Assembly: GCA_030037265.1 (NCBI GenBank)
Contig: JASHRQ010000144.1
Coordinates: 1-45,865, forward strand
Direction: 5' to 3'
DNA length: 45,865 nt
Origin: Thermoplasmata archaeon
GTDB taxonomy: Archaea > Thermoplasmatota > Thermoplasmata > Lutacidiplasmatales > UBA184
A program made the translations under genes and the position numbers. Positions 1,248 to 16,202 of this stretch are shown here, in pieces (within the stretch, counting starts at the first letter, position 1; the number at the start of each line of letters is the position of its first letter). The notes under the pieces were generated by a model that was given only the letters and a program-made list of their open reading frames with translations, made no database searches and was not told the DNA's origin.

Positions 1248-2771
1248 TCACGCCACCGGCGGAGCGCCGGGAGGAGGCGGGGAGAGCATCGGGAGCGCGA
1301 CGGCCGGGGCGCCGTCCGGGAGCCGGACGAGCGCGCCGCCGCGACCCAGGAGGAGCGGGCGGGCGACCCGGGCATCGATCTCGTCCACGGCGCGCGACAG
1401 CCGGTCCAGCACGTCGGCGGAGAGCTTCCGCCGGAGCCGCGCGAGCCGGGACTCCCAGCCGAACCGGAACTGCTCCCACCGGTAGAGCGGCTCGGGGTAC
1501 GCGGCTTCGTACAGCAGCGAACGGCCCCCGGCGCGCCCCGTGGAGCGCGGCCGGCCGCGGAGCCGGTCGCGCACCGACTCGTAGAACCGGGTACCCGGCA
1601 CGGGGACGGCGATCGAGACCGAGTACTCCTCGGGCGAGAACCGGCGGAACAGCTGGAGGGTCGCCTCGATGTCGTCGAGCGTCTCGCCGGGGTAGCCCAG
1701 CATGAGGAACCAGAACTGCCGGACGTCGTGCGCCCGCAGGCTCGCGGCGACCCGCTCCACCTGCGCGAGCCGGGTGCCGCGGTTCATCAGGTCGAGCATC
1801 TTCTGGCTCCCGGACTCGACACCCAGGTACACCCGCTCGAGCCCGGCCGCGCGCATCCGGTTCAGCAGGTCCGGCTTGAGGAGGTCGACCCGGGCCAGGC
1901 ATTCGAACCGGACCCGGGGGCCCTCCGCGACCATTCGGTCGAGCAGCTCCTCGATCCAGGGCCGGTAGATCCCGAACACGTCGTCGCAGAACCGGATGTA
2001 ATCGACGCGGTACCGGTCGACGAGCGCGCGCAGCTCGGCCAGCACGCGCCCCGGCGACTGCTGGCGGAACGTCCGGCCGAAGGTCGGCTTGGAGCACCAC
2101 GAGCAGTCGAACGGACACCCCCGGGACGTTAGCAGGGCGGCCCGCCGTTCGCCGGTCTTCCGCTGCCACGCCCCCAGATACGCCTCCATGTCGATGAGGT
2201 CCCAGGCCGGCAGCGGCAGTTCGTCCAGGTTCCGGAGGAACGGACGGGGCGGCCCGCGGACCGTGCGGCGTCCGACGCGGGCCACGGTCCCGGGCACGCC
2301 GCCGAACGGCTTCCCGTCGCGGGCCCGAGTGGCCACCTCCACGATCGTCGTCTCGCCCTCGCCGGGCACCACGACGTCGAACCCTCCGTCCAGGTAGCCG
2401 TCCGCGCGCGTCGCGGCGTCGGGCCCCCCCGCGACCGCGACGGCGTCCGCTGACCGCGCGAGCGCGGCCACCTCGAGCGCCCGCGGCAGCGTGAGCGTCT
2501 TCGTGTGGACCCCGACCAGGTCGGGGTGGAACCGCTCGATCCGGCGCGCGACCGGCCCGGTGTCCCGGGCGAAGGTGAGGTCGACGATCTCGACCTCGGT
2601 CCCGTGTCCCCGAAGCCACGCCGCGAGCGTGAGGAGGCCGAGCGACGGGTACAGCTCGACGAACTTGCGCTCCATCGGGTCCTCGCGCGCGACGTACGGG
2701 TCGACCAGCAGCACGCGGGGGGCGACGCCGTCTCCGCCCCGGCGACCGGACGCGGGGGTCGGCTCAGCCAC
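1248..2771 (-). CDS. Cobalamin-binding-domain (class B) radical SAM enzyme, substrate unknown
   Basis: 507-aa ORF. N-terminal B12-binding-type segment 'RVLLVDPYV...LGLLTLAAWLRGHGTEVEIVDL'. Radical SAM cluster motif 'SRGCPFDCSWCSKP' (CxxxCxxC). Core 'GVESGSQKMLDLMNRG'. Start is either GTG 2771 (8-nt overlap with the ferredoxin gene) or GTG 2714. Confidence 0.85.
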   Translation of the reverse strand: MAEPTPASGRRGGDGVAPRVLLVDPYVAREDPMERKFVELYPSLGLLTLAAWLRGHGTEVEIVDLTFARDTGPVARRIERFHPDLVGVHTKTLTLPRALEVAALARSADAVAVAGGPDAATRADGYLDGGFDVVVPGEGETTIVEVATRARDGKPFGGVPGTVARVGRRTVRGPPRPFLRNLDELPLPAWDLIDMEAYLGAWQRKTGERRAALLTSRGCPFDCSWCSKPTFGRTFRQQSPGRVLAELRALVDRYRVDYIRFCDDVFGIYRPWIEELLDRMVAEGPRVRFECLARVDLLKPDLLNRMRAAGLERVYLGVESGSQKMLDLMNRGTRLAQVERVAASLRAHDVRQFWFLMLGYPGETLDDIEATLQLFRRFSPEEYSVSIAVPVPGTRFYESVRDRLRGRPRSTGRAGGRSLLYEAAYPEPLYRWEQFRFGWESRLARLRRKLSADVLDRLSRAVDEIDARVARPLLLGRGGALVRLPDGAPAVALPMLSPPPPGAPPVA

Positions 2772-2983: not shown

Positions 2984-3385
2984 CTACGCCCCGGCGCTCC
3001 CGGGCGACGGCCCGTCCGGATGGAGCGCCTTCCCCAGCGCCGTGAACCCCGTGAGCGCGCACTTGAGCCGAACGGGGGAGAGCGGAATCCCGAGCATCTG
3101 GAGGACGTCGTCCCGGGAGAGCTTCGCGACCTCCGCGACCGGCTGCCCGGCGAGCTTCTGGGTGAGCATCGACGCGCTGGCCATCGAGATCGCGCAGCCG
3201 TCGCCGGAGAACCGCACCTCCTCGACGAGGGCGCGGCCGGGGTCGAGCCTCAGGTCGATCCGGATATGGTCGCCGCAGAGCGGGTTGCTCTCCTCGCCCG
3301 TGAGGTCGGGGTGGGCGAGCTCCCCGAAGTTCTTCGGGTGGCGGTAATGCTGGAGAATCCGCTCCTGGTACATGTCGTAGGCCAT
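2984..3385 (-). CDS. sufU: SufU/NifU-N-type Fe-S cluster scaffold / sulfur acceptor
   Basis: 133 aa. ATG preceded by GGAGGT about 6 nt upstream. Three ligand Cys sit in family context: 'NPLCGDHI', 'GDGCAISMASASM', 'RLKCALTG'. No LPPVK motif, so SufU type rather than IscU type. Confidence 0.8.
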   Translation of the reverse strand: MAYDMYQERILQHYRHPKNFGELAHPDLTGEESNPLCGDHIRIDLRLDPGRALVEEVRFSGDGCAISMASASMLTQKLAGQPVAEVAKLSRDDVLQMLGIPLSPVRLKCALTGFTALGKALHPDGPSPGSAGA

Positions 3386-3429
3386 CGTCGACCTCCGCCG
3401 GAACGGACGAGGTAAGGGACGCCGGGAAA

Positions 3430-3439
3430 CTTATAAAAG
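3430..3439 (-). promoter_or_regulatory. TATA-like box upstream of the sufU operon
   Basis: Minus-strand 'CTTTTATAAG' in GC-rich surroundings, about 50 nt upstream of the sufU ATG. This implies a roughly 20-nt leader carrying the GGAGGT site. Confidence 0.45.
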
Positions 3440-3464
3440 GCGACCGACGCGCGGGCGACTGGCC

Positions 3465-4526
3465 CTACGCGCGCCCCCGGGCCGGGGCCCGGGTCGGCTC
3501 CAAGAGGCGGTCGTACCGGTGGTCGACCACCCGGGCGAGCGACGCGATCCGGTCGGACTCGACCTCGATCTGCCGGAGGTGCTCCTCGATGGTGCCGAGC
3601 ACCGACGCCCGAGGGCCGTTGCCGCCGGACGGGGGCTCCGCCTGACCGACCGTGCCCAGGATCGCCCGTCGACCGTCGTGCGCGAACAGGAACGGATAGA
3701 CCTGACAGCGCTCCGTCAGCGCGCGCAGCAGCTCGGCCGGACGGGCCGGAGGGATGAACTCGCCGTGCAGGAACACCACCTGGTCCGCCCGCCGGTCGCG
3801 GTAGGCGGGCAGGACCGCGAAGTCCGGGAGCGCCCGATGGAGCACCCAGCCGTCCGAGAGGAGCCGTCGCTCCGGGCGGGTGAGCCCGAGGAGGCCCAGG
3901 TAGTGGCCCGAGCGTCCCTCGAGCTCCGCGACGATCGGGCGGAGGACCAGGTCGTGGGCGGCCCGCCGCAGTCCCGGGGACGCGTCGCCCGTGGGAGTGC
4001 GGGCGCCCGGAGGGAACGGCGGCGCGAGCGGCCGAGGGTACGCGGTGATCCCGGACAGCCCCGCCAGATGGGACCAGACCCCCTCGTAGTCGAAGTACAA
4101 CGGCACCGCCTCGGGCGTCGTCCCCGTCGTGAGGACGAAGGCGCCCGGCCGGGTCGGGTCGTCGTTGAGCCCCGCGGCGGTCCGCGCCGCCTCCGCGCCC
4201 GACCGGTGGAGGAAGATGCCGAACAGGAGCTGGGAACTCGCCCAGAGCACGACGTTGGAGTCGAGCCGGCTCCATCGCTCCATGAGCGGGGTCGCGCGGT
4301 CGGCGTACGGCCGGGCCACCGCGACCGTGATCGCACCGAAGCCGAAGCACCCGGGGTGCGGCACGAACCGGACCCGGAGCCACCCCTCCTCGTACGCGCG
4401 GCGCCGGACGGCATGATACGTCGAGCGCGGGAGCCGGGTCTCCTCCAGGAGCTCGTGCTCGCCTTCCGCGGGACGCGCGACGAGGGCCCGGATGAGCCTC
4501 GCCTCCGCGTCGGTGAGTGCGCGCAA
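3465..4526 (-). CDS. Hypothetical protein with internally duplicated HTH-like plus alpha/beta module
   Basis: 353-aa ORF (TTG start in track; true start uncertain). N-terminal HTH-like 'LTDAEARLIRALVARPAEGEHELLEETRLPRSTYHAVRRRAYEEGWL'. The second half repeats the pattern: 'LVLRPIVAELEGRSGHYLGLLGLTRPERRLLSDGWVL'. No family recognised. Confidence 0.55.
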   Translation of the reverse strand: MRALTDAEARLIRALVARPAEGEHELLEETRLPRSTYHAVRRRAYEEGWLRVRFVPHPGCFGFGAITVAVARPYADRATPLMERWSRLDSNVVLWASSQLLFGIFLHRSGAEAARTAAGLNDDPTRPGAFVLTTGTTPEAVPLYFDYEGVWSHLAGLSGITAYPRPLAPPFPPGARTPTGDASPGLRRAAHDLVLRPIVAELEGRSGHYLGLLGLTRPERRLLSDGWVLHRALPDFAVLPAYRDRRADQVVFLHGEFIPPARPAELLRALTERCQVYPFLFAHDGRRAILGTVGQAEPPSGGNGPRASVLGTIEEHLRQIEVESDRIASLARVVDHRYDRLLEPTRAPARGRA

Positions 4527-4660
4527 CTCCTCGCTCTCCGACCGACCGGGACCGAGTCCAGCCTACCGGCGCCGGCGTTGGACATCTCTTGATGTAAGCC
4601 TGTCGGCCGTTACCGGCAGCGGACGCCCCCGCGGGGCGCCCCGAGGAGGCCCGACCGACC

Positions 4661-6124
4661 ATGCACGCACCGGACCGAGCATCCGCCCGACGCCGATCGC
4701 TCCCGCTCGTGGCCGCCGTCGTGGCCGTCGCGGCGACGATGACGATGCTGTTCGCACTGCCCGCCGTCGCCGGGGTCGGGGGCGCCACACCGGCCGGCCT
4801 GTCGGCCCAGACCTACACGGCGAACGGGAACGTCCAGACCTGGGCGTTCGGCGGCACCCGCACGGTCAACTCGAACCTCACGGTCACGAACTCGACCGGT
4901 GCCGGGTTCGAGCTCACCTATCACGCCTATTACGGCTGGACCGAGGTGCTCACGCAGACCAACAGCACCACGAACGCCTCGATCTTCCAGCTCGAAGCCC
5001 AGCGCGACGCGCTCACCATCCTGTACATCGACTTCAAGGTGTGCGCCACGTCGTGCGCGACTCCGACCAGCCAGGGGAACTTCTCTGCCCAGGCGACGGC
5101 CGCCGCGACGGCGTTCGGCAACTTCACCCGGAACGGCACCGTGACCGTCCAGGGCCAGGCCGTCCCGGCGGTCGGGATCCTGAACGCGTCGGGCAGCCGG
5201 CAGGAGAACCTGTCGGCCCGGCTCGTCCTCACCGACGCCCTTGGCAACTCCCGCGGCTGGTCGCTCGTCGTCGGCTCGTACGCCGAGGCGGCGGTGTCGC
5301 TCTCGCCGGAGCTGGGGCTGATCCCGTACAACCTCACCCCGGGCGAGCACTGGTCCAGCACGTCGACCTACGTGCTCACCGGCAGCTCGGCCGTGACGGC
5401 GAACCTCACCGGTCCGGCCGGCCGCAGCAGCGTCTGGACCGGCGGCGGCACGCTCGACAGCACCGGCACGGTCATCGTCGTCGGGGCGTACACCGCGAAC
5501 CTGAACCTGAAGGACGGGGCGCACACCCGGATCGTCGTGTTCTCGCTCACGGGACCGTTCGACCTCGATGACGGGGTCATGCTGGTCCCGAACGCGGGCG
5601 ACGTGCTGAGCGGCGCCTCGCTCGGAGCTGGCGCCCCCGGGCTCGGCATGGGTCCGACGGCGGCCACCTCGGCGGTCGACTACGACCCGTCGGCCGGTCA
5701 CTTCGGCGTGGACGCGGCGGCGACCTCCTACGGGCCCGCGGTCGCGGGCGCGGGCGCCACCGCGGGCATCGGCCCGGACGCGGTTCCGGCCTCCGCCTCT
5801 CCGACGGTCCAGGGTCAGCCGATGGCGCCGAAGGCCGCCGAGGAGCTCGGCTCGAGCCTCGTGCACGGCCACGCCGTCACCTACCCCGCGACCGGCTCGC
5901 TCCCGTGGAGGGCGATCGTCGTGGTCGGCGCCATCGCGGGAATCGCCGTGCTCGCGATCGCGCTGGTGACGACGGGCGCGGGCCGGCGCCCGCGAACTCC
6001 CCCGGCCGCGCAGTACCCGCCCGCCACGGCCCCCCCGGTCCCTCCGGGAGCCGCGGGCACCCCCGCTCCACCGCCGGCGAACCCGCCGCCGCAGCCGTCG
6101 GACCCGCTCCGGAACCTGTGGTGA
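4661..6124 (+). CDS. Type I membrane-anchored surface (glyco)protein
   Basis: 487 aa. N-terminal 'RRRSLPLVAAVVAVAATMTMLFALPAVAG' signal (Tat-like RR). Thr/Ser/Gly/Ala-rich ectodomain with about 11 N-x-S/T sequons. C-terminal TM 'AIVVVGAIAGIAVLAIALVTT', then the Pro-rich tail '...PPATAPPVPPGAAGTPAPPPANPPPQPS'. Confidence 0.75.
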   Translation: MHAPDRASARRRSLPLVAAVVAVAATMTMLFALPAVAGVGGATPAGLSAQTYTANGNVQTWAFGGTRTVNSNLTVTNSTGAGFELTYHAYYGWTEVLTQTNSTTNASIFQLEAQRDALTILYIDFKVCATSCATPTSQGNFSAQATAAATAFGNFTRNGTVTVQGQAVPAVGILNASGSRQENLSARLVLTDALGNSRGWSLVVGSYAEAAVSLSPELGLIPYNLTPGEHWSSTSTYVLTGSSAVTANLTGPAGRSSVWTGGGTLDSTGTVIVVGAYTANLNLKDGAHTRIVVFSLTGPFDLDDGVMLVPNAGDVLSGASLGAGAPGLGMGPTAATSAVDYDPSAGHFGVDAAATSYGPAVAGAGATAGIGPDAVPASASPTVQGQPMAPKAAEELGSSLVHGHAVTYPATGSLPWRAIVVVGAIAGIAVLAIALVTTGAGRRPRTPPAAQYPPATAPPVPPGAAGTPAPPPANPPPQPSDPLRNLW

Positions 6125-6202
6125 AGGACGGTCGACAGCGAATCGAACCGGACGTTGAACGACGGGGGTGGCCTGTCCCCCGGGCTACCCCCGATAACCC
6201 CT

Positions 6203-6222
6203 TCCCGAACCTCTTTTTTCGG
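6203..6222 (+). terminator. Hairpin with T6 run downstream of the surface protein gene
   Basis: 'CCCGAA-cctctttt-TTCGGG': 6-bp stem with TTTTTT at about 6213-6218, roughly 80-95 nt after the stop at 6124. Oligo-T is the usual archaeal termination signal. Confidence 0.4.
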
Positions 6223-6252
6223 GGCTGGCGGAGGAATCCTTCCCGGCCGCCG

Positions 6253-6287
6253 CACACGCTATAAACACGAATCCGTGTGTAAATTCG
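6253..6287 (+). promoter_or_regulatory. sufD promoter (TATA box, leaderless spacing) with candidate operator
   Basis: 'CACACGC-TATAAAC' (6253-6266) is centred about 26 nt before ATG 6288. The inverted repeat ACACG-N4-CGTGT (6265-6278) lies between the TATA box and the start. Confidence 0.5.
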
Positions 6288-7688
6288 ATGGAGAGCGGCG
6301 GGGCGGGTTTTGACCGCTGGTTCGAGCCGTCCCAGGTCGAGGAGCTGTCGCACGGTCTCGGCGAGCCGGCGGCGGAGACCCGGCTCCGGCAGGACGCCCT
6401 CCAGTCGTTCCGCGAGCTGCCGTTCGAGCCCAGCCCGCTGTACCGCAAGTACGTCTACCTCTCCGGCGTGAACCTCTCCGCGGCGAGCCCGCTCGTGCGG
6501 GGCCCGCCGGTGGGGCTCCCCGCCGGGACCCCGACGGTCCTGCGGGTGGTCCACGACGCCTCGGGGACCCGGGTCGAGCTGCCGGAGGAGCTCCGCGCCG
6601 CCGGAGTGACCGCCGAGGCGCTCCCCGCGGTCGCCGGCTCGCTCGACGGCCGGTACGCGGGGTTCCTGGAGGGACTCGACCCGAAGGGGCCCCGGTCCGA
6701 CAAGCTCGAGGCGCTCTCCGTGGCGCTGATGAACCGGGGGGTGGACCTCACGGTGCCGGACGACTGCCCGGTCCCCGTCCACGTGCAGGACCTGACGGTG
6801 TTCTCGCGGCCGAACGAGATCCTCTCGGTGCGCCGCCGGATCCGCGCCGGACGGCACGCCCAGGTCGTCGCGAGCGAGGAGGTGTACAGCACGCCGGCCG
6901 AAGGGGGCCAGCGGTTCTACGGCTCGCTCGCCTCGGTGCAGACCGGCGACGAGGCGCGCGTCGCGTACCTCACGGTGCACGCGCCGGACGCCCGGCTGTT
7001 CTCGGCCTACTCCCGCCACGCCGTCACCGGTCGCGCGACGCAGCTCGCGTGGGTCTGGGCGGGACTGGGCGGGTTCCGGACCCGCAGCCGCAACTTCTCG
7101 GACGTCGCGGGCAACGGCGGCGACGTCGCGGACCTCCAGGCGTTCTACGGGGACGGCCAGCAGTCGTTCGACAGCTACGTCCAGATCACCCACCAGGGGA
7201 CCGACACGCACGGCCAGTCGATCACGCGCGGGATCTTCCGGGACGAGGCGCGCGGCGTGAGCCGCGGGCTGGCCCGCATCGAGAAGGAGGCGCGGAAGAC
7301 GGTGAGCTACCTCTCCGAGCACGCGATGCTGCTGTCGCGCCAGGCACGCTCCGACACGATCCCGGTGCTCGAGATCCTCTGCCGGGACGTGAAGGCGACG
7401 CACTCGTCCTCCGTCGCGCCGGTCGACCCGGAGCGGGTGTTCTACCTCGAGTCGCGCGGCATCCCCGCGCCGGACGCCGTGCGCATGATCAGCGAAGGGT
7501 TCCTCGGCTACGTTCTCGACCGGGCGCCGATCGCCGACCTCGCGGGCCGGCTCGCCCCGCACCTCGCCGCCCGGTGGGAGCGCCGGCCGATCGTCTGGGC
7601 GGACGGGGCCTACCCGGTTCTCGCGCCGCTCGAGGTCCTGGGGGCCGAGGGCGCCAAGGAGTGGCGGTTCGACACGAAGCTGCGCTGA
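6288..7688 (+). CDS. sufD: Fe-S cluster assembly protein SufD
   Basis: 466 aa. SufB/SufD-family C-terminal beta-helix region: '...VQITHQGTDTHGQSITRGIF...RIEKEARKTVSYLSEHAMLLS...ATHSSSVAPVDPERVFYLESRGIPAPDAVRMISEGFL'. It lacks the SufB-specific N-terminal features seen in the neighbouring sufB. Confidence 0.85.
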   Translation: MESGGAGFDRWFEPSQVEELSHGLGEPAAETRLRQDALQSFRELPFEPSPLYRKYVYLSGVNLSAASPLVRGPPVGLPAGTPTVLRVVHDASGTRVELPEELRAAGVTAEALPAVAGSLDGRYAGFLEGLDPKGPRSDKLEALSVALMNRGVDLTVPDDCPVPVHVQDLTVFSRPNEILSVRRRIRAGRHAQVVASEEVYSTPAEGGQRFYGSLASVQTGDEARVAYLTVHAPDARLFSAYSRHAVTGRATQLAWVWAGLGGFRTRSRNFSDVAGNGGDVADLQAFYGDGQQSFDSYVQITHQGTDTHGQSITRGIFRDEARGVSRGLARIEKEARKTVSYLSEHAMLLSRQARSDTIPVLEILCRDVKATHSSSVAPVDPERVFYLESRGIPAPDAVRMISEGFLGYVLDRAPIADLAGRLAPHLAARWERRPIVWADGAYPVLAPLEVLGAEGAKEWRFDTKLR

Positions 7689-7760
7689 CGCGCACCGACC
7701 GGCCCGCGCGGGGACGCCGGGCGCGGCCCCGGTGAGCGGGGGGCGCGGAGGCGGCCGGCC

Positions 7761-9173
7761 CTACCCGACCGCGCCGGTCATCTCGAGCTGGATGAGCCGG
7801 TTCAGCTCGAGCGCGTAGTCCATCGGGAGCTCCTTCGCGAACTCCGCGAGGAAGCCCATCAGGATGAGGTGGATCGCGTCGCTCTCGGAGAGGCCGCGGC
7901 TCATGAGGTAGAAGATCTGCTCCTCGCCGATCTTCCCGACGACCGCCTCGTGGGTGATCGTCGCGTCCTGTTCGTGGATCTCGTTGTACGGGTACGTGTC
8001 GGACCGGCTGTCGTCGTCCGGCAGGAGCGCGTCGCACCGGACCGCCGCCTTCACACCGGACGCGCCGCGCGCGACGCGCAGGAGCCCGCGGTAGCTCGTC
8101 TGCCCGCCGCGGATGGCGATCGACTTCGAGACGATCTTGCTCGACGTGTCCGGCGCCAGGTGGACCGCCTTCGCGCCGGAGTCGATGACCTGGCCCTGGG
8201 AGGCGAAGGCGACCGACAGGATGTCGGCGCGCGCCCCGCGGCCCTTCAGGTAGACCGAGGGGTACTTCATCGTCACCTTCGAGCCCATGTTCCCGTCGAC
8301 CCACTCGACGAGCGCCGCCTCCTGGGCGACGGCCCGCTTCGTGACGAGGTTGTAGACGTTCTTCGACCAGTTCTGGACGGTCGTGTACCGCACCTTCGCG
8401 TACGGCTCCGCGACGACCTCGACGACCGCGGCGTGGAGCGAGTCGGTCGAGTAGACCGGCGCCGTGCACCCCTCGATGTAGTGCACCTTCGCCCCGCGGT
8501 CGGCGATGATCAGCGTGCGCTCGAACTGCCCCACGTTCCGCGCGTTGATGCGGAAGTACGCCTGGAGCGGGATCCCGGCGTCCACCCCGGGCGGCACGTA
8601 GACGAAGCTCCCGCCGGACCAGACCGCCGAGTTGAGGGCCGAGAACTTGTTGTCGTTGAACGGCACGACGGTCCCGAAGTACTTCCGGACGAGGTCCGGG
8701 TACTCGCGCACCGCGGTGTCGGTGTCGGTGAAGACGACCCCCTTCTTCGCGAGGTCCTCGCGGATCTTGTGGTAGACCGTCCCCGAGTCGTACTGCGCCC
8801 CGACGCCCCCGAAGAACTCGCGCTCGGCCTTCGGGATCCCGAGCCGCTCGAAGGTGTTCTTGATGTCGGCCGGCAGGTCCTCCCACTTCCGCTTCGTCTC
8901 CCCCTCGGCGAGCGGATTGGCGTAGTACGTGTAGCCGTCGAAGTCGATGTCCGAGAGGTCCGGGCCCCAGTCCGGCATCGGCCGGTTCACGAACTCCTCG
9001 TACGCCCGGAGCCGGTAGTCGAGCATCCACTGGGGCTCGCTCTTGAGGCGGGAGATCTGCTCCACGATCTCCCGGGAGAGCCCCTGGGCGGTCCGTACCT
9101 TGTACGTCTCGGGGTTCTTGAAGTCGTAGCGCGTGTAGTCGAGCGGCTGGAACTCCGCGGCGGTCTGCGCCAT
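7761..9173 (-). CDS. sufB: Fe-S cluster assembly scaffold SufB
   Basis: 470 aa with full-length family match by eye: 'FNDNKFSALNSAVWSGGSFVYVPPGV', 'FERTLIIADRGAKVHYIEGCTAP', 'VTMKYPSVYLKGRGARADILSVAF', 'ATITHEAVVGKIGEEQIFYLMSRGLSESDA'. ATG start with a G-rich RBS upstream. Confidence 0.97.
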   Translation of the reverse strand: MAQTAAEFQPLDYTRYDFKNPETYKVRTAQGLSREIVEQISRLKSEPQWMLDYRLRAYEEFVNRPMPDWGPDLSDIDFDGYTYYANPLAEGETKRKWEDLPADIKNTFERLGIPKAEREFFGGVGAQYDSGTVYHKIREDLAKKGVVFTDTDTAVREYPDLVRKYFGTVVPFNDNKFSALNSAVWSGGSFVYVPPGVDAGIPLQAYFRINARNVGQFERTLIIADRGAKVHYIEGCTAPVYSTDSLHAAVVEVVAEPYAKVRYTTVQNWSKNVYNLVTKRAVAQEAALVEWVDGNMGSKVTMKYPSVYLKGRGARADILSVAFASQGQVIDSGAKAVHLAPDTSSKIVSKSIAIRGGQTSYRGLLRVARGASGVKAAVRCDALLPDDDSRSDTYPYNEIHEQDATITHEAVVGKIGEEQIFYLMSRGLSESDAIHLILMGFLAEFAKELPMDYALELNRLIQLEMTGAVG

Positions 9174-9204
9174 GCCGTTCTCCCCCCGGAGAATTCCATC
9201 ACTC

Positions 9205-10503
9205 CTACGTATTTAAACGAGGCGTAGCGGCGGCGCGGACGCCCTTCTGCCGGCGGTGGGAGACGGGGGGTGTCGCGCCTCCCGCGAACAGCGCTCGCGC
9301 CTTCTCCAGAGCGTGGAACAGCTGGTCAACCTCGTCCTCGGTGTTGTACAGGTGGACGCTCCCGCGGGTCAGCGCCGGCACCGCGAGCCGCTCCATGAGC
9401 GGCTGGGCGCAGTGATGCCCCGCCCGCACCGCGACCCCCTCCGCGTCCGCGACCGCGGCCACGTCGTGCGGATGGATGCCGCGGAGCGCGAACGAGAAGA
9501 CGCTCGCATGCCCCTCGGCGAGCGGGGGTCCGTACACCGTGAGATCCGGGCCGAACTCCTCCGCCCGGCGGTACGCGCGCGCGAGCAGCCGACGCTCGTG
9601 CTCCGCCATCGCCTCCCAGCCGACGGCCTCCAGGTAGTCGGCCGCGGCCGCGAGACCCACCGCCCCCGCGACGTTCGGGGTCCCGGCCTCGAAGCGCGCC
9701 GGCGGGTCGCGGAAGGTGACCCGGTCCGGGTGGACCTCGCGGATCATCTCTCCCCCGCCCATGAACGGGGGCAGCGCGTCGAGCCGTTCCCTCCGGCCCC
9801 AGAGGACCCCGATCCCCATCGGGCCGAGCATCTTGTGGCCGGAGAACGCGACGAAGTCGACGCCCAGCCGCTCGACGTCGATCGGCCGGTGGGGCGCCGA
9901 CTGCGCCGCGTCGAGCACCACGACCGCGCCGTGGTCCCGCGCCTCGCGGGCGACCTCCGCGACGGGGTTCACGGTGCCGAGGACGTTCGACACGTGCGCG
10001 AGGGTGACCACCTTCGTTCGGGGGCCCCACGCGCGGGCGTACTGCTCGGTCCTGAGCCGGCCCGCGTCGTCGATGTCGATGAACGTGAGCTCGACCCCGC
10101 GGCGCTCCCGCACGAGCTGCCACGGGACGATGTTCGAGTGGTGCTCCATGATCGTCGGGAGCACCCGGTCGCCCCGCTCGAGCGTCGAGTGGCCGAGCCC
10201 CTGCGCGACCAGATTGAGCCCCTCCGTCGTGCCGCGGACGAACACCACCTCCGACGGGTCGCGCGCGTGCAGGAACCGGGCCATCCGCTCGCGCGCGCCC
10301 TCGTAGGCGTCGGTCGCTTCCTCGGAGAGCGCGTAGACGCCGCGGTGCACGTTCGCGTTGGTCCGCTGGTAGAATCGCCGTTCGGCCTCGAGGACCGGCC
10401 GCGGCTTCTGCGACGTCGCGGCGGAGTCGAGGTACGCGAAGGGCCGGCCGTGGAACGTCCGGTCGAGGATCGGGAAGTCCTTCCGGATCCGGTCCACGTC
10501 CAT
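9205..10503 (-). CDS. sufS: Cysteine desulfurase SufS (class V aminotransferase, group II)
   Basis: Real start is the internal ATG 'MDVDRIRKDFPIL...' (residue 163 of track ORF 9205..10989). Motifs: 'AYLDSAATSQKP', 'HHSNIVPW', PLP lysine 'FSGHKMLGPMGIG', active-site 'RAGHHCAQPL'. The upstream part of the track ORF is Arg/Gly junk overlapping sufC. Confidence 0.95.
   Translation of the reverse strand: MDVDRIRKDFPILDRTFHGRPFAYLDSAATSQKPRPVLEAERRFYQRTNANVHRGVYALSEEATDAYEGARERMARFLHARDPSEVVFVRGTTEGLNLVAQGLGHSTLERGDRVLPTIMEHHSNIVPWQLVRERRGVELTFIDIDDAGRLRTEQYARAWGPRTKVVTLAHVSNVLGTVNPVAEVAREARDHGAVVVLDAAQSAPHRPIDVERLGVDFVAFSGHKMLGPMGIGVLWGRRERLDALPPFMGGGEMIREVHPDRVTFRDPPARFEAGTPNVAGAVGLAAAADYLEAVGWEAMAEHERRLLARAYRRAEEFGPDLTVYGPPLAEGHASVFSFALRGIHPHDVAAVADAEGVAVRAGHHCAQPLMERLAVPALTRGSVHLYNTEDEVDQLFHALEKARALFAGGATPPVSHRRQKGVRAAATPRLNT
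9209..9218 (-). promoter_or_regulatory. TATA-like box for sufB inside the 3' tail of sufS
   Basis: Minus-strand 'GTTTAAATAC' about 41 nt upstream of the sufB ATG (9173). A GGGGGGAG RBS lies in the predicted short leader. Confidence 0.35.
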
Positions 10504-10535
10504 CGGTCGGTCCCGGTCTCCCGCTCCCGCCCGGC

Positions 10536-11312
10536 TCAGGCCGACGTCGTCGGCTTCACCCAGTCGTAGCCGCGGGACTCGAGCTCGACGGCGAGCTCCT
10601 TGCCTCCGGAGAGCGCGACGACTCCGTCGACCATCACGTGGACCCGGTCGAGCGGGACGTACTTGAGGATCCGCTGGTAGTGCGTGATCACGACGATCCC
10701 CATGTCGGGGTTCGCCTTCGCGACCTTCGCGACCGTCTCGCCGACCGCCTTCACCGCGTCGATGTCGAGCCCGGAGTCCGGCTCGTCGAGGATCGGGAAG
10801 ACGGGCCGGAGCGTCGCCATCTGGAGGATCTCGGACCGCTTCTTCTCGCCGCCCGAGAACCCCTCGTTGAGCGAGCGCTTGAGGAACGACGCATCCATCG
10901 ACAGCGCGGAGAGGCCCTCCTGCACCGCCCGGTCGAAATCGGCGGTGTCGACGTCCGGGCCCGGGTGGCGCTGCGCGTAGGCGGTCCACAGGAACTTCGC
11001 CATCGACAGCCCGGACACTTCCTGCGGGTACTGGAAGCCCAGGTAGATCCCGAGCCGGGCGCGCTTGTCGACGGTGAGCGGCAGGATGTCCTGCCCGTCG
11101 AACAGCACCTTCCCGGAGGTCACCTTGTACTTCGGGTGGCCCATGATGCAGTAGCCGAGCGTCGTCTTGCCCGAGCCGTTCGGGCCCATGATCGCCGACA
11201 GCTCGCCGGAGCGGAACTCGAGCGAGACGCCCTTCAGGATCTCCTTGCCCCCGACCTCGGCGTGCAGGTCTCGGACCGCCAGGGTGTGCGGGGTCGGCGG
11301 CGGAGTCGACAT
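10536..11312 (-). CDS. sufC: Fe-S assembly ATPase SufC
   Basis: Internal ATG 'MSTPPPTPHTLAVRDLHAEV...' (residue 71 of track ORF). Walker A 'GPNGSGKTT', signature 'FSGGEKKRSEILQ', Walker B 'ILDEPDSGLDIDA', 'VITHYQRIL'. Confidence 0.95.
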   Translation of the reverse strand: MSTPPPTPHTLAVRDLHAEVGGKEILKGVSLEFRSGELSAIMGPNGSGKTTLGYCIMGHPKYKVTSGKVLFDGQDILPLTVDKRARLGIYLGFQYPQEVSGLSMAKFLWTAYAQRHPGPDVDTADFDRAVQEGLSALSMDASFLKRSLNEGFSGGEKKRSEILQMATLRPVFPILDEPDSGLDIDAVKAVGETVAKVAKANPDMGIVVITHYQRILKYVPLDRVHVMVDGVVALSGGKELAVELESRGYDWVKPTTSA

Positions 11313-11415: not shown

Positions 11416-12063
11416 ATGAGCGCCGGCGACCTCGTGCTGTCCGAGGGAACTCGGGGAAAGATCCTGGAACGGCTCGCCTCCGCTCCGCGTACCGCCCGCG
11501 ACCTCGCGGAGAACCTCGGCATCCAGGAGAGCGCGGTCCGGGGGCACCTCGACCGGCTCGAGGACCGGGGACTCGTCCATCCGACGTTCTACCGCGAGGG
11601 CGTGGGCCGGCCGAAGAAGCGCTACGCCCTCACGTCGCAGGGCTTCGACCTGTTCCCCCGTCGCTACGAGTTCCTGCTCGACGCGGTGATGGAGGAGCTC
11701 CTGTCGCGCGAGGGCGAGGGGTACACCTCGGCGCTGTTCGCCGAGGCCGCGCGTCGGATGGCCGGGCAGATCGCGAGCCGGATCCCCGCGAGCCTCCCGC
11801 GCGAGGCGCGGGCGCGCGCCGTCGCGGACGCGCTGAACCAGCTCGGATTCCGCACCGAGGTGGAGACGACGCCCACCGGGGAGATGCGGATCGTCCGGAC
11901 GAACTGCGTCTTCCGCCACAACGCGCTCACGCACGCCTACCTGCTCTGCGAGGTGTTCGACAAGTACCTCACCGAGGGGATCGTCGGCCAGTCCGGGTTG
12001 CAGCTCGAGGAGTCGATCACCCGCGGCGGGCTCAAGTGCACGCATCTGATCCAGCTCCACTGA
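11416..12063 (+). CDS. ArsR-like winged-HTH regulator with Cys-bearing C-terminal sensor domain (SufR-like by context)
   Basis: 215 aa. wHTH 'RGKILERLASAPRTARDLAENLGIQESAVRGHLDRLEDRGLV'. C-terminal domain carries Cys-x13-Cys-x29-Cys-x-His ('TNCVFRHNALTHAYLLCEVF...GGLKCTH'). Divergent from sufCSB. Confidence 0.8.
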   Translation: MSAGDLVLSEGTRGKILERLASAPRTARDLAENLGIQESAVRGHLDRLEDRGLVHPTFYREGVGRPKKRYALTSQGFDLFPRRYEFLLDAVMEELLSREGEGYTSALFAEAARRMAGQIASRIPASLPREARARAVADALNQLGFRTEVETTPTGEMRIVRTNCVFRHNALTHAYLLCEVFDKYLTEGIVGQSGLQLEESITRGGLKCTHLIQLH

Positions 12064-13016
12064 CCGCCGGGGGGGACCGAGCCTCGGGGGCCGTGCGTCC
12101 CGAGACGGTGCTCGACGCGCTCGTCCAGCGCGTCGGCCACACCCCGCTCGTGCCGCTCGCCCGCGTCGGACGGGGGCTGCCGCCCGGCGTCGGGCTCTGG
12201 GCGAAGGCCGAGTTCCTGAACCCGACCGGGTCCGTGAAGGACCGGGCGGCGCTCGCGATCGTGCGCTCGGCGCTCGAGGCCGGCGCGCTGGACGGCGGCC
12301 GCACGCTGCTCGACGCGTCGAGCGGCAACACCGGCATCTCGTACGCGTGGCTTGGCGCCCGGCTCGGGTTCCCGGTCGAGGTCTGCCTCCCGAGCAACGC
12401 GAGCCCGGGACGGATCCGGCGGCTCCGCGCGTACGGCGCGACGGTCGTCTTCACCGACCCGACGGAGGGGACCGACGGGGCGCAGCGGGAGGCGCGCCGC
12501 CGGGCGGAGTCGGCCCCGACGCGGTACTACTACGCCGATCAGTACCACCATCCGGCGAACCCCGGGGCGCACTTCACCGGCACCGGCCCCGAGGTCTGGG
12601 CCGAGGTCGGGGATCGACTGACGCATTTCGTCGCCGGCGTCGGCACCGGCGGGACGCTCACCGGCACCGGCCGGTTCCTGAAGCAGGTCTCGCCCGCCGT
12701 CCGGGTGGTCGGCGTCGAACCGGACGGCCCGTTGCACGGGCTCGAGGGGCTGAAGCACCTCCCGTCGTCGCAGCGCCCGGGGACGTACGACCCGTCGGTC
12801 GTCGACGAGACCGTGCGGGTCCCGACGGAGCGGGCCCAGGTCATGGCCCTCCGGCTGGCCCGGGAGGAGGGGCTCCTCGTGGGGACCTCGGCCGGCGCCG
12901 CGGTCGTCGGCGCGCTCGAGGTCGCGTCGCGGACGGCCGGCCCCGCCGTCCTCGTCACGGTCCTTCCGGACGGCGGCGACCGGTACCTCTCGGACGCCTA
13001 CTGGGCCGCGGTATGA
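12036..13016 (+). CDS. cysM: CysM-type cysteine synthase (PLP-dependent, sulfur-carrier/O-phosphoserine type by context)
   Basis: PLP lysine 'NPTGSVKDRAAL', 'SSGNTGIS', 'GVGTGGTLTG'. The track start GTG 12036 overlaps the regulator gene. The low-GC3 first codons suggest the true start is GTG 12093 or 12108 ('VLDALVQRVGHTPLVPL'). Confidence 0.9.
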   Translation: MHASDPAPLTAGGDRASGAVRPETVLDALVQRVGHTPLVPLARVGRGLPPGVGLWAKAEFLNPTGSVKDRAALAIVRSALEAGALDGGRTLLDASSGNTGISYAWLGARLGFPVEVCLPSNASPGRIRRLRAYGATVVFTDPTEGTDGAQREARRRAESAPTRYYYADQYHHPANPGAHFTGTGPEVWAEVGDRLTHFVAGVGTGGTLTGTGRFLKQVSPAVRVVGVEPDGPLHGLEGLKHLPSSQRPGTYDPSVVDETVRVPTERAQVMALRLAREEGLLVGTSAGAAVVGALEVASRTAGPAVLVTVLPDGGDRYLSDAYWAAV

Positions 13017-13471
13017 CCGACGTGGAGCTCGGCGCCGGGCTCGCGGAGGAGGTCCGCCGGCACGGCGAGCGGGCGTACCCCGAGGAGGCGTGCGGCTTCC
13101 TCGTCGGGGAGGCCGCGAGCGCGTCCGGAACCGCCCGACGACGCATCGTGCGCGTCGAGTCGATGGAGAACCGCGTCGGCGACCAGCGGACCCGGCGGTT
13201 CGTCATCCCTCCCGACGAGGTCCGACGGTTCGAGCGCTCGCTCGAAGGCAGCCACGAGCTCCTGGTCGGCTTCTACCACTCGCACCCGGACCACCCGGCG
13301 GTCCCCTCGCAGTTCGACCAGGAGCACGCCTGGCCGTGGTACACCTACCTCGTCCTCTCGGTCGCGCACGGGAGGGCCGACGAGCTCGGCGCCTTCGAGC
13401 TCGACCCCGATGAGCGACGCTTCCGCCCCGTGGAGTGCACGGTCGACGCGCCCCCGCTCCCGCGGGAGTGA
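13013..13471 (+). CDS. mec: JAMM/MPN+ metallopeptidase (Mec-like)
   Basis: 152 aa from the internal ATG of track ORF 12347..13471. The ATGA overlaps the cysM stop (13013-13016). Catalytic Glu 'EEACGFLVGE' and an intact 'HSHPDHPAVPSQFD' (HxHx7Sx2D). Confidence 0.85.
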   Translation: MTDVELGAGLAEEVRRHGERAYPEEACGFLVGEAASASGTARRRIVRVESMENRVGDQRTRRFVIPPDEVRRFERSLEGSHELLVGFYHSHPDHPAVPSQFDQEHAWPWYTYLVLSVAHGRADELGAFELDPDERRFRPVECTVDAPPLPRE

Positions 13472-13515
13472 AGGGGGGGTAACCGAGGGAGTAATACCGC
13501 ACCCCCGTGAGCGCC

Positions 13516-15009
13516 ATGATGGCTACCGTCCCGGTCCGCATCCCGACCCCGCTCCGCTCGTTCGTGGGCGGGGCCGCGGTCGCCGAGGTGGAGGCGACGA
13601 CGCTCGGGGGCGCCCTGCGCGCGCTCGTCGCGCGGCACGGGGCGCTCGAGAAGCACCTCTACTCCGCCGACGGCACGCTCCGGAACTTCGTGAACGTCTA
13701 CGTGAACGACGAGGACATGCGCCAGCTCGACGGCCCGGCGACGCCGCTGCGGGCCGGCGACACCGTCACGATCGTCCCCGCGATCGCGGGCGGGTCGCCC
13801 GGCCCGTCGGCGGCGGCCCCCGCGCGACCGGCCGCGGTCGGTCCGGCGGTCGGAGGGGACGGAGAGCCTCGCCTCACGCCGGACCAGCTCCGTCGCTACA
13901 GCCGCCACCTGCTCCTGCCGGAGATCGGGGTCGAGGGGCAGAAGAAGCTCCGGGCCGCGAAGGTCCTCCTGGTCGGCGCCGGGGGGCTCGGCGCCCCGGC
14001 GGCGCTGTACCTCGCCGCGGCGGGGGTAGGCGAGCTGGGGCTGGTCGATTTCGACGTCGTCGAAGCATCGAACCTCCAGCGCCAGGTGCTGTTCAGCACG
14101 GCCGACATCGGGCGGCCGAAGCTCGACGCCGCCCGCGACCGGCTGACCGGCCTCAACCCGGACGTCGTCGTGCGGCCGTTCCCGCACCGGCTCACCGGTG
14201 ACAACGCGCTCGAGGTCCTGCGTCCGTACGACGTGGTCGTCGACGGGACGGACAACTTCCCCACCCGGTACCTCGTGAACGACGCCTCGGTGCTCCTCGG
14301 GAAGCCGAACGTCTACGGCTCGATCTACCGGTTCGAGGGCCAGGCGAGCGTCTTCGACGCGCGCCGGGGGCCGTGCTACCGGTGCCTGTATCCGGAGCCT
14401 CCGCCGCCCGGCCTCGTGCCGTCGTGCGCGGAGGGCGGCGTGCTCGGAGTGCTGCCGGGGCTCATCGGGACCCTCCAGGCGATCGAGACCGTGAAGCTCC
14501 TCACGGGCGCCGGGGAACCGCTGTACGGGCGGCTCCTCCTGTTCGACGCGCTCGCGATGCGGTTCCGCGAGCTGCGCCTCCAAAAGAACCCGGACTGCGT
14601 CCTGTGCGGCCCGCACGCGACGCAGCACGGCCTCATCGACTATCCGGCGTTTTGCGGCGTCGGGGCCGAGCCGGAGGCCCCGGCGGCGGGGCTGCCGACC
14701 ATCTCGCCGACGGAGCTCGCGGCACGGCTCGCCGCCGACGACCCGCCGTTCGTGCTGGACGTCCGCGAGCCGAACGAGTGGGAGATCGGCCGGATCCCCG
14801 GCGCGACGCTCATCCCGCTCGGCGAGCTGCCGAACCGGCTGACCGAGCTCACCCGCGCCCGGGAGGTGGTCGTGTACTGCCGGACCGGCGGCCGGTCGCG
14901 TCGGGCCGTCCAGCTGCTGCTCGACCTGGGGTTCACCCGCGTCGAGAACCTGGAGGGCGGTCTCCACGCCTGGTCGGACCAGGTCGACCCGAGGATCCCG
15001 AAGTATTAG
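13516..15009 (+). CDS. Fusion protein: CysO/MoaD-like ubiquitin-fold sulfur carrier + MoeB/ThiF E1 adenylyltransferase + rhodanese (MoeZ-like)
   Basis: Single uninterrupted frame (track 13507..15009; ATG at 13516/13519 is the likelier start). Carrier domain: 'VPVRIPTPLRSFVGG...FVNVYVNDEDMR...GDTVTIVPAIAGG'. Ala/Pro/Gly linker. E1 domain: 'RYSRHLLLPEIG', 'VLLVGAGGLGAPAALYLAAAGVG', 'CYRC'/'CVLCG', 'PSCAEGGVLG'. Rhodanese loop: 'VVYCRTGGRS'. Confidence 0.85.
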   Translation: MMATVPVRIPTPLRSFVGGAAVAEVEATTLGGALRALVARHGALEKHLYSADGTLRNFVNVYVNDEDMRQLDGPATPLRAGDTVTIVPAIAGGSPGPSAAAPARPAAVGPAVGGDGEPRLTPDQLRRYSRHLLLPEIGVEGQKKLRAAKVLLVGAGGLGAPAALYLAAAGVGELGLVDFDVVEASNLQRQVLFSTADIGRPKLDAARDRLTGLNPDVVVRPFPHRLTGDNALEVLRPYDVVVDGTDNFPTRYLVNDASVLLGKPNVYGSIYRFEGQASVFDARRGPCYRCLYPEPPPPGLVPSCAEGGVLGVLPGLIGTLQAIETVKLLTGAGEPLYGRLLLFDALAMRFRELRLQKNPDCVLCGPHATQHGLIDYPAFCGVGAEPEAPAAGLPTISPTELAARLAADDPPFVLDVREPNEWEIGRIPGATLIPLGELPNRLTELTRAREVVVYCRTGGRSRRAVQLLLDLGFTRVENLEGGLHAWSDQVDPRIPKY

Positions 15010-15196: not shown

Positions 15197-15907
15197 ATGC
15201 GCCGGTCGCGGCCGTACCGGGCCCGGTTTCCCGACGTGGGCCGACGCCTTTCCCGGGCGTCCGCGGCCCTCGCCGTGGCGTTCCTGCTCCTGCCGTTCGC
15301 GACGACGGCGGCCGCCGAGGCGGCCCCCGCGCCCGTGACGCCCGCGCTCGCGGCGAGCAGCTCCTCGCTCGCCGGCGCGCTCTACTGGAACGGCAAGGAC
15401 GCCGCCACGGCCGGCTCGCCGGGCACGGCGTTCTCCTGGTCGTTCGCCAACGTGGCGACCGTGAAGTTCGACTGGACCTCGCTCCCGGGCGTCAGCGTCT
15501 CGGGGATCTCCCAGGCGGACCTGTACGTGCTGCTGCTCGGCATCCCCGTCTACACGAAGACCCAGGTCGAGTCGACCCCGCTCTCCGCGCTGGCGGGTTC
15601 GATCACCATGACGTACGACCTGACCCAGTACCGCTGGTTCGTCCAAGGGCTGTACGAGCTCAAGGGAGCGCTGGAGGACCCGAACGGCAGCGTCGTCTGG
15701 AGCGAGACGTTCTACGTCCGCGCCACCGTTCCGTTCGACGTCACCGTCGCGACGGTCGCGTTGCTGCTCATCGTCGTGGCCGAGCTGTACATGATCGTGA
15801 CCGTCGGCCCGCGGGCCGCCGACAAGACCCGAGCCCAGGCGATGAAGAGCGCCTCGACCGGCGCCGAACCGCCCCCGCCGTCGCCCCCGCCGTCGGGAGG
15901 GTCGTGA
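15197..15907 (+). CDS. Secreted, C-terminally membrane-anchored hypothetical protein
   Basis: 236 aa. Signal 'GRRLSRASAALAVAFLLLPFATTAAAEA'. Beta-rich ectodomain. TM 'VATVALLLIVVAELYMIVTV'. Cytoplasmic tail ending 'GAEPPPPSPPPSGGS'. Confidence 0.65.
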   Translation: MRRSRPYRARFPDVGRRLSRASAALAVAFLLLPFATTAAAEAAPAPVTPALAASSSSLAGALYWNGKDAATAGSPGTAFSWSFANVATVKFDWTSLPGVSVSGISQADLYVLLLGIPVYTKTQVESTPLSALAGSITMTYDLTQYRWFVQGLYELKGALEDPNGSVVWSETFYVRATVPFDVTVATVALLLIVVAELYMIVTVGPRAADKTRAQAMKSASTGAEPPPPSPPPSGGS

Positions 15908-15908
15908 G

Positions 15909-16202
15909 ATGGGCGCCGGGTCGAGCGCGGCGGGGAGCGGCGTCATCGTCGGGATCTGCATCGTCCTCCTCGCGCAGCAGCTGGGGATCCTCGACCTCAG
16001 CTCGGTCCTGACGGGGCTCATCTATCTCATCGTCTTCGCCGTCGTCTTCGGAATCTTCTTCGGGATCATCGGCTCCGCGCTCGGCCGGCGCTACCTGCGC
16101 CAGCACTCCGGCCTCTCGGAGTGGAAGGGCACGGCCGCCTCGGCGGCCGCGGCGAAGGCGGGGGCCGCCTCCGGCGAGGAAGAGCCGACCCAGTCGAACT
16201 GA
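15909..16202 (+). CDS. Small two-TM membrane protein
   Basis: 97 aa. The ATG lies 1 nt after the upstream TGA (GTGAGATG). TM segments 'VIVGICIVLLAQQLGIL' and 'LIYLIVFAVVFGIFFGIIGSALG'. Ala-rich acidic tail. Confidence 0.6.
   Translation: MGAGSSAAGSGVIVGICIVLLAQQLGILDLSSVLTGLIYLIVFAVVFGIFFGIIGSALGRRYLRQHSGLSEWKGTAASAAAAKAGAASGEEEPTQSN

Follow-up and report, generated by a model that had tools for sequence, protein, structure and literature searches.

How can a sulfur carrier of the ubiquitin fold serve its purpose when its C-terminus, which has to be free, runs on without interruption into the very enzyme expected to activate it? The question arises from a locus in a DNA stretch of 45,865 nucleotides from a Thermoplasmata archaeon (NCBI assembly GCA_030037265.1, contig JASHRQ010000144.1, positions 1 to 45,865), hereafter called the window, i.e., the whole stretch analysed at its full length. 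There, a CysO-like carrier, an activating enzyme (E1) of the MoeZ type and a rhodanese domain are encoded as a single polypeptide, next to genes for a JAMM metallopeptidase and a CysM-type cysteine synthase. Carriers such as MoaD, ThiS and CysO need a free Gly-Gly carboxylate for adenylation (PMC4443979, PMC4326299). The answer put forward here, and considered probable, is that the fusion is a precursor to be cut after Gly-Gly, for which the adjacent JAMM peptidase is the likeliest enzyme, and that it feeds a cysteine route of the CysO/CysM/Mec/MoeZ kind.

The fusion is built from the following parts:

13507..15009, plus strand: open reading frame (ORF) for carrier, linker, E1 and rhodanese, one uninterrupted frame of 500 aa
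13507..13794, plus strand: carrier domain, CysO-like beta-grasp, residues 1-96 (Pfam ThiS over residues 10-96, E 2.7e-13)
13789..13794, plus strand: codons of Gly95-Gly96, which align with the C-terminal GG of CysO (G95 and G96 invariant in the 23-sequence alignment A1)
13795..13869, plus strand: disordered linker rich in Ala, Pro and Gly, residues 97-121, of sequence SPGPSAAAPARPAAVGPAVGGDGEP
13897..14598, plus strand: E1 adenylation domain of the MoeB/ThiF/MoeZ type, residues 131-364 (Pfam ThiF, E 1.7e-84)
14425-14427, plus strand: crossover-loop Cys307 of the E1, invariant in alignment A1
14704..14979, plus strand: rhodanese domain, residues 400-491 (Pfam Rhodanese, E 7e-22)
14878-14880, plus strand: active-site Cys458 of the rhodanese, invariant in alignment A1

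In a preliminary description of this DNA, made from its letters, an uninterrupted frame with Gly-Gly codons ending at 13794 and a 25-residue linker with no stop in between had been reported, followed by a complete E1 (GAGGLG, two CxxC pairs and PSCAEGG) and a rhodanese domain (CRTGGRS); the frame, junction and linker were recovered exactly at these positions, and both enzymatic parts were borne out by translation and Pfam. Residues 84-96 of the fusion read GDTVTIVPAIAGG, without a stop codon after the two Gly codons, and the predicted scissile bond is Gly96|Ser97. The public gene call begins at the ATG at 13519 and gives 496 aa, and a protein identical but begun four codons later is on record in NCBI assembly GCA_030044915.1, contig JASIBX010000050.1.

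By sequence as well as by fold match, the N-terminal domain is a beta-grasp of the CysO type, as had been proposed for the first 96 residues. Its best solved relative is CysO of M. tuberculosis (PDB 3dwg_C, E 7.6e-17), where residues 8-96 map onto residues 3-93 of 93 with 44% identity and the two Gly of the carrier fall on the CysO C-terminus. Modelled alone with AlphaFold2, the domain reached a predicted local distance difference test (pLDDT) value of 90.5, and the top Foldseek match of the model was again CysO 3dwg_C (template modelling scores 0.79/0.85), followed by CysO of Amycolatopsis and archaeal SAMP1. The carrier is thus of the CysO type, although its GG lies inside the polypeptide and only cleavage would make it the terminus. 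To judge from its motifs and domain matches, the remainder of the fusion is a complete MoeZ-like E1 plus rhodanese. GAGGLG lies at residues 157-162, the CxxC pairs at 290-293 and 364-367, PSCAEGG at 305-311 and CRTGGRS at 458-464, while GxGxxG, both CxxC pairs, C307 and C458 are invariant in alignment A1. Residues 122-500 match the MoeZ model NF005902 (E 3e-143) with 477 bits, below its cut-off of 647, and the closest PDB entries for the E1 are Uba4, ThiF and MoeB (E 1e-60 to 1e-65). A structure model of the full-length protein shows the beta-grasp, the E1 and the rhodanese as folded units and a disordered stretch at residues 92-120 (pLDDT 26-33). The linker at 13795..13869 holds no in-frame ATG, GTG or TTG, so that neither part can be made alone; an internal start giving the E1 by itself is thereby ruled out.

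Whether such a fusion is more than an accident of one genome was addressed by a search over 5.8 billion proteins for its relatives. At least 120 protein clusters were found at 65-72% identity, 483-517 aa in length and all endowed with the ThiS, ThiF and Rhodanese Pfam domains; the closest named relatives are from Thermoplasmata archaeon, and where a cluster bears an organism name, it is given as Thermoplasmata archaeon 'MoeB'. When residues 1-175 were used as the query of an exhaustive HMMER search, 43 representatives were obtained at E <= 1e-30, and for most of the best 150 representatives the carrier, the linker and the start of the E1 were matched as one stretch. Fused and split genes were then compared, as the preliminary description had advised, in a sample made of the 80 best matches to the fused query with one genome per GTDB species, a choice by which the frequencies of the two forms are biased. 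Reading frames checked by script placed carrier and E1 in the same frame without a stop in 53 loci (51 of them full-length fusions) and in adjacent separate genes in 25, while no carrier was attached in 3. The fused loci belong to Thermoplasmata, Methanomassiliicoccales, many families of Acidobacteriota, Gemmatimonadota, Ktedonobacteria, Zixibacteria, Eisenbacteria, Fibrobacteraceae and others.

As the window comes from a metagenome-assembled genome, it could be argued that the fusion reflects an artefact of sequencing or assembly, namely a missed stop or a frameshift after GG, or else a decaying pseudogene. Given that the same in-frame junction occurs in at least 120 clusters and in 53 independently assembled loci from two domains of life, with the catalytic residues all conserved, the probability left to this explanation is negligible, and an artefact was rejected on the ground that the junction was seen again in more than 50 independent assemblies. 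The fusion is genuine and under selection in two domains of life; its layout is common in soil microbes and very common in metagenomes. Its parts are conserved to different degrees. The motif AGG stands at the junction in 51/51 full-length fusions, and the linker that follows ranges from 5 to 53 residues; column conservation among these 51 proteins is 0.20 in the linker, compared with 0.62 in the carrier, 0.78 in the E1 and 0.61 in the rhodanese. The residue next to GG can be A, S, T, G, L, V, K, R, C or I.

Two genes immediately upstream of the fusion complete the set of activities:

12036..13016 (gene caller: GTG 12093, 307 aa), plus strand: CysM-type cysteine synthase dependent on pyridoxal 5'-phosphate (Pfam PALP, E 1.4e-69)
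13013..13471, plus strand: JAMM/MPN+ metallopeptidase of the Mec/desampylase type, 152 aa (Prok-JAB, E 1.5e-22)

The motif of the JAMM protein is intact, i.e., HSHPDHPAVPSQFD corresponds to HxHx7Sx2D, with an upstream Glu in PEEACG, and its best solved match is PDB 2kcq_A (E 3.8e-26). Its ATG (13013-13015) overlaps the TGA stop of the CysM gene (13014-13016), and thus both the intact motif and the ATGA coupling to a CysM-type enzyme announced in the preliminary description proved correct. The CysM protein matches TIGR01138 cysM at E 4e-90, under the cut-off of the model; like the E1, the rhodanese and the JAMM protein, it has intact and invariant catalytic motifs. In mycobacteria, Mec+ hydrolyses the CysO-Cys adduct. 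Short C-terminal pro-peptides of other carriers are likewise removed by a JAMM: QbsD trims GG-CF from QbsE in the thioquinolobactin pathway and HcyD trims GG-A from HcyS in Wolinella.

What happens at the C-terminus of the carrier can be followed in those relatives where it is a gene of its own. In 25 loci the order CysM-JAMM-carrier-E1 is kept with a separate carrier gene, and on a neighbour-joining tree of the E1, built without support values, fused and split forms are intermixed at short distances. A tail after GG is retained by 23/25 of these split carriers, with lengths up to about 50 residues, e.g., A, C, SC, AR, ARK, CVII, CGDMI, CCVMILA, SHRTIQRIW and APDSANFRRAVI. Since 23/25 are tailed, the operon family as a whole makes pro-carriers, of which the fusion to the E1 is the extreme case. 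In 11 split carriers the tail begins with Cys, in likeness to the CysO-Cys adduct; these are all from Acidobacteriota (L028, L029, L036, L037, L039, L042, L046, L047, L048, L069 and L080), and the forms GG-C, GG-CVII, GG-CGDMI and GG-CCVMILA also resemble the GG-CF of QbsE. Such tails may show the residue that this JAMM family prefers after GG.

The beta-grasp domain might nonetheless never be released and act instead as a regulatory, docking or pseudo-substrate domain, as in ThiF of the Campylobacter type, with the real carrier encoded elsewhere. Fusions of ubiquitin-like (Ubl) proteins with ThiF are known in which the Ubl is distinct from ThiS and the operon also has a stand-alone ThiS, so that a different role was deduced for the fused domain (Iyer et al., 2006, PMC1779556). 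Besides, the E1-rhodanese survives without a carrier domain in L045, L068 and L079. Against this explanation, the fused domain is a genuine homologue of CysO whose alignment runs to the last residue, the AGG junction is universal among the full-length fusions, the linker is without constraint, and the orthologous split loci hold a free carrier at exactly the same position. Neither the stand-alone ThiS nor the thiamine context of the Campylobacter type was found in the window or in the fused loci; the genes alongside are those for CysM and JAMM and the suf genes. By phmmer and a family hidden Markov model, no second ThiS-like carrier was detected in the 45.9-kb window, nor, for any fusion, in its operon or up to about 6 kb away, whole genomes lying beyond this search. 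A domain that stays attached is accordingly held to be rather improbable.

If the carrier is released, the next question is by which protease. JAMM is adjacent to the fusion in 49/51 evaluable fusions and stays with it where CysM is absent (L011, L018, L025, L056 and L077); its distribution tracks that of the carrier, as also in L045, where JAMM, CysM and the carrier domain were lost together, and in L068, where an unfused carrier ending at GG-stop has no JAMM nearby. In other Ubl fusions this family has the required activity: HvJAMM1 cuts a linear SAMP1-MoaE fusion exactly after the terminal Gly, the fusion being inactive otherwise (PMC4443979), and DRJAMM cuts the natural MoaD-MoaE fusion of D. 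radiodurans (PMC8832034). Alternatively, cleavage at GG might be due to another cellular protease or to the E1 itself, with JAMM acting only in the manner of Mec on the carrier-Cys adduct. The precedent is MoaX of M. tuberculosis, which is cut at Gly82|Ser83 and needs this cleavage for activity, and for which the protease is still unidentified (PMC4326299). Fusions L032 and L055, without JAMM within 6 kb, as well as L076, where JAMM is present even though the carrier ends at GG-stop, would agree with it. The five loci lacking CysM speak the other way, as the Mec role has no local partner there while JAMM is kept with the fusion, and so does the cleavage of linear Ubl fusions after GG by JAMMs of the same family. 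Self-cleavage by an N-to-S or N-to-O acyl shift was rejected as a general route because Ala or Gly follows GG in 23/51 fusions. Taken together, a division of labour in which JAMM spares the junction is deemed unlikely.

Several observations weigh against precursor cleavage by JAMM as the preferred reading, and they have to be set against the above. First, JAMM adjacency is not specific evidence of processing because the pathway needs a JAMM of the Mec type for the CysO-Cys adduct anyway; moreover, L032 and L055 have CysM with no JAMM within 6 kb, and L076 has JAMM with nothing to trim after GG. Second, where the linker is at its shortest (5 aa, L074), a peptidase would have little space to reach the junction. 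Third, CysM scores nearer to enterobacterial CysM (PDB 2jc3, E 6.7e-66) than to M. tuberculosis CysM (3dwg_A, E 5e-50), so that its use of a protein thiocarboxylate is presumed, and such PDB scores alone do not separate O-phosphoserine from O-acetylserine use. Fourth, the NCBIfam equivalog scores for MoeZ, cysM, SAMP1, UbaA and desampylase are all under the respective cut-offs. Finally, the carrier search spanned the window and flanks of about 6 kb, not whole genomes, which also bears on the possibility of a carrier encoded elsewhere.

Even so, release at GG remains the preferred reading because the junction is conserved and the linker variable, fused and split forms interchange, no other carrier lies nearby and JAMM tracks the carrier. 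As to the earlier suggestion that the neighbouring JAMM liberates the carrier, its first half thus gained comparative support, i.e., release at GG, while the cleavage itself and the identity of the protease are inferred, adjacency of JAMM being unspecific.

The purpose of the released carrier is a further point, as the module might mainly serve protein conjugation in the manner of sampylation or urmylation, or the supply of sulfur to tRNA or molybdopterin, with CysM as no more than a neighbour. The host is an archaeon, the carrier also matches SAMP1, the E1 UbaA and the JAMM protein desampylase, several loci have JAMM and the fusion but no CysM, and MoeZR of M. tuberculosis is reported to serve the molybdenum cofactor and cysteine pathways alike (PMC3227635). 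Yet the three archaeal equivalog models all remain under cut-off (SAMP1, 53.5 vs. 60; UbaA, 334 vs. 450; NF041370 desampylase, 72 vs. 130 at E 3.6e-20), the best matches being CysO and MoeZ/MoeB; CysM is translationally coupled to JAMM in the window, and it is adjacent in most loci, archaeal and bacterial. A role chiefly outside cysteine synthesis is on these grounds very improbable. The locus is best described as a thiocarboxylate-dependent cysteine-synthesis module of the CysO/CysM/Mec/MoeZ type, for which cleavage, protease, sulfur donor and serine substrate are inferred.

The cycle that would follow from precursor cleavage can be laid out in six steps, namely (i) translation of the 500-aa precursor, (ii) hydrolysis of the Gly96-Ser97 bond by a peptidase, the likeliest candidate being the co-transcribed JAMM, which would yield a carrier of 96 residues whose Gly-Gly carboxylate is free, together with an E1-rhodanese bearing a short disordered N-terminal tail, (iii) adenylation of the carrier C-terminus by the E1, (iv) transfer of sulfur from a Cys458 persulfide of the rhodanese to form the carrier thiocarboxylate, this sulfur possibly coming from the neighbouring SufS, (v) attack of the thiocarboxylate, as the nucleophile of CysM, on an activated serine to give a carrier-Cys adduct, and (vi) hydrolysis of the Gly-Gly-Cys bond by the same JAMM, which would free cysteine and recycle the carrier. 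In such a scheme the fusion would be tolerated because the pathway already has a peptidase cutting whatever follows the GG of the carrier; as the cycle needs this peptidase, a C-terminal extension of any size would cost nothing extra. A bolder version supposes that both the carrier and the E1 are inert until the JAMM cut, like a zymogen, with an obligate 1:1 stoichiometry and a proteolytic on-switch, and that the freed carrier of Thermoplasmata is perhaps also a protein modifier; the likelihood given to it is low. Were it true, prokaryotes would have in this system a counterpart of the ubiquitin of eukaryotes, which is in every case synthesised as a fusion precursor and set free by deubiquitinases; the precursor partner would here be the E1 itself.

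Around the cysteine module, the window presents an adjacent, divergent suf iron-sulfur (Fe-S) assembly cluster (2984..11312) and a few further genes:

2984..3385, minus strand: NifU/SufU-like gene
6288..7688, plus strand: SufD-like gene
7761..9173, minus strand: SufB
9205..10503, minus strand: sufS (Aminotran_5, E 5.6e-140)
10536..11312, minus strand: sufC, divergent from the cysteine cluster
11416..12063, plus strand: ArsR/SufR-like winged-helix regulator (Pfam HTH_5, E 6e-10; TIGR02702 SufR, E 2.4e-10, under cut-off)
15197..16202, plus strand: pair of small ORFs (236 and 97 aa), hydrophobic and Ala-rich, without Pfam match
1248..2771, minus strand: B12-binding radical S-adenosylmethionine protein, with no evident link to the fusion
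27482..29956, plus strand: AAA_16 plus TPR (STAND-like) protein of 824 aa, with no evident link to the fusion
41459..44056, plus strand: penicillin-amidase family protein, with no evident link to the fusion

The helix-turn-helix (HTH) regulator is the first gene of the plus-strand cluster, whose order is HTH, CysM, JAMM and fusion, and it diverges from sufC-sufS. In Thermoplasmata loci it lies directly upstream of CysM or JAMM, which is not the case in bacterial loci, where the order CysM, JAMM and carrier/E1 is retained. That the first gene is of the SufR/ArsR kind hints that cysteine supply and Fe-S assembly are controlled together, and the persulfide of the rhodanese domain could plausibly come from SufS, a cysteine desulfurase. 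ABCE1 is found downstream of the fusion, which fits an archaeal host, and the whole arrangement from suf through HTH, CysM, JAMM and fusion to ABCE1 is syntenic across Thermoplasmata loci; in a subset of these, the two small ORFs keep their position at 30-54% identity.

Some loci depart from the common pattern. The Thermoplasmata locus L045 (about 5196-7131) retains the synteny (sufS, sufC, HTH, bPH protein and ABCE1) but lacks CysM, JAMM and the carrier domain, and its HTH gene directly precedes an E1-rhodanese with a short linker-like N-terminus; CysM, JAMM and carrier seem to have been lost as a unit, the E1 presumably being kept for other sulfur-relay work. At L068:3518-3800 (minus strand), a divergent carrier of about 92 aa ending in LIPAVAGG-stop is encoded near an unfused E1-rhodanese of Thermoplasmata, and neither JAMM nor CysM was found within 6 kb. 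At L070:6001-6423, in a metagenome-assembled genome of Methanobacteriota, the tail of a stand-alone carrier reads VIVPSIAGG-AADGVLSREVAEGRVEASIAGG-VCEAEVSRDEVAAGGRMVEANIVPFIAGG-stop, and protein P0266 is similar in ending with IVPSIAGG, about 25 aa and again IVPSIAGG; in both, the terminal strand plus GG appears to be duplicated. An apparent union of JAMM and carrier in one ORF at L070 was discarded, as the shared stop-to-stop frame is spurious and JAMM lies in another frame. In a clade of Terriglobales/Acidobacteriaceae (L024, L028, L029, L034, L036, L042 and L052), JAMM and the carrier gene are about 1-1.5 kb apart; the gap of L029, the only one inspected, holds a minus-strand ORF that interrupts the operon and looks, by sequence alone, like an unrelated PP2C/SpoIIE-type phosphatase.

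How much of this is new has to be stated with care, since the preliminary description did not recognise the module as described. The operon type itself, combining ThiS/MoaD, E1-rhodanese, JAB and cysteine synthase, was catalogued in 2006 as row 4c of Table 1, including an acidobacterium (Iyer et al., 2006, PMC1779556), and Ubl-E1 fusions are known, e.g., 'Ubl-E1-TBP' in Thaumarchaeota (Makarova and Koonin, 2010, PMC2948915). On the other hand, no description of a CysO-type carrier fused to MoeZ was found by full-text searches or in Iyer 2006, Burroughs 2007 and Makarova and Koonin 2010, although a treatment of the E1-like superfamily (Burroughs et al., 2009) may mention one. All three domains are already picked up by annotation strings of JGI and by precomputed Pfam hits, and the layout seems never to have been studied. 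What is known is thus the operon type and the JAMM processing of carrier fusions, and what seems to be new is the fusion of a CysO-type carrier to its own MoeZ-type E1.

The practical consequence lies in annotation. As the fusions are named only 'MoeB adenylyltransferase', pathway reconstructions for Thermoplasmata, Acidobacteriota, Gemmatimonadota and others will count the CysO carrier as absent, and a complete route to cysteine by way of a protein thiocarboxylate will escape notice. The principle of a precursor carrier freed by JAMM would be extended from MoaD-MoaE to the activating enzyme of the carrier, which would add a case of Ubl precursor processing by a deubiquitinase homologue outside eukaryotes, and the natural series formed by fused carriers, split carriers with a tail and split carriers ending at GG-stop offers material for defining recognition by JAMMs of the Mec type. 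The evidence further points to a CysM-JAMM-fusion cassette common to soil bacteria and archaea. No current view is overturned; the use of the finding lies in annotation and in this natural series of JAMM substrates, and its interest for the history of Ubl precursor processing is mild.

Compared with known systems, the closest is that of M. tuberculosis, with CysO, CysM, Mec+ and MoeZ(R) (operon types 4c and 4d, PMC1779556), which shares the four activities with the window locus, the genes being clustered. It differs in that the carrier of the window is the N-terminal domain of the E1 and has to be released before the first turnover, in the archaeal host, in the adjoining suf operon and SufR-like regulator, and in a CysM scoring nearer to enterobacterial enzymes. 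The nearest parallels for the architecture are MoaX, MoaD-MoaE of D. radiodurans and the engineered SAMP1-MoaE, where an N-terminal Ubl likewise has its GG peptide-bonded to a functional partner. Their activity needs a cut after GG, which is made by a JAMM in both cases with a known protease, and the cut site of MoaX, GG|S, is the same junction as in the window fusion. Unlike in these fusions, the partner in the window is the activating E1-rhodanese and not MoaE, the downstream sulfur acceptor, the pathway concerns cysteine instead of molybdopterin, the linker is long and disordered, and the JAMM is encoded in the same operon, with a proposed second catalytic role in the cycle.

In QbsE/QbsD and HcyS/HcyD, residues after GG are trimmed by the JAMM of the operon, and tails of this sort are carried by most of the split relatives (23/25); in the window, however, the 'pro-peptide' would be an enzyme of 404 residues. 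The Ubl-ThiF of the Campylobacter type and the Ubl-E1-TBP of Thaumarchaeota have, as in the window, a beta-grasp N-terminal to an E1 in one polypeptide. The former belongs to a thiamine operon with a stand-alone ThiS and is supposed to have another role, whereas the domain in the window is a CysO orthologue and the only carrier nearby, in a CysM/JAMM context and followed by a C-terminal rhodanese. Lastly, SAMP1/UbaA/HvJAMM1 of Haloferax is also archaeal and comprises a beta-grasp with GG, an E1 and a JAMM, and SAMP1 structures are among the top fold matches of the carrier; the E1 of the window differs in carrying a rhodanese, and the cluster in including CysM.

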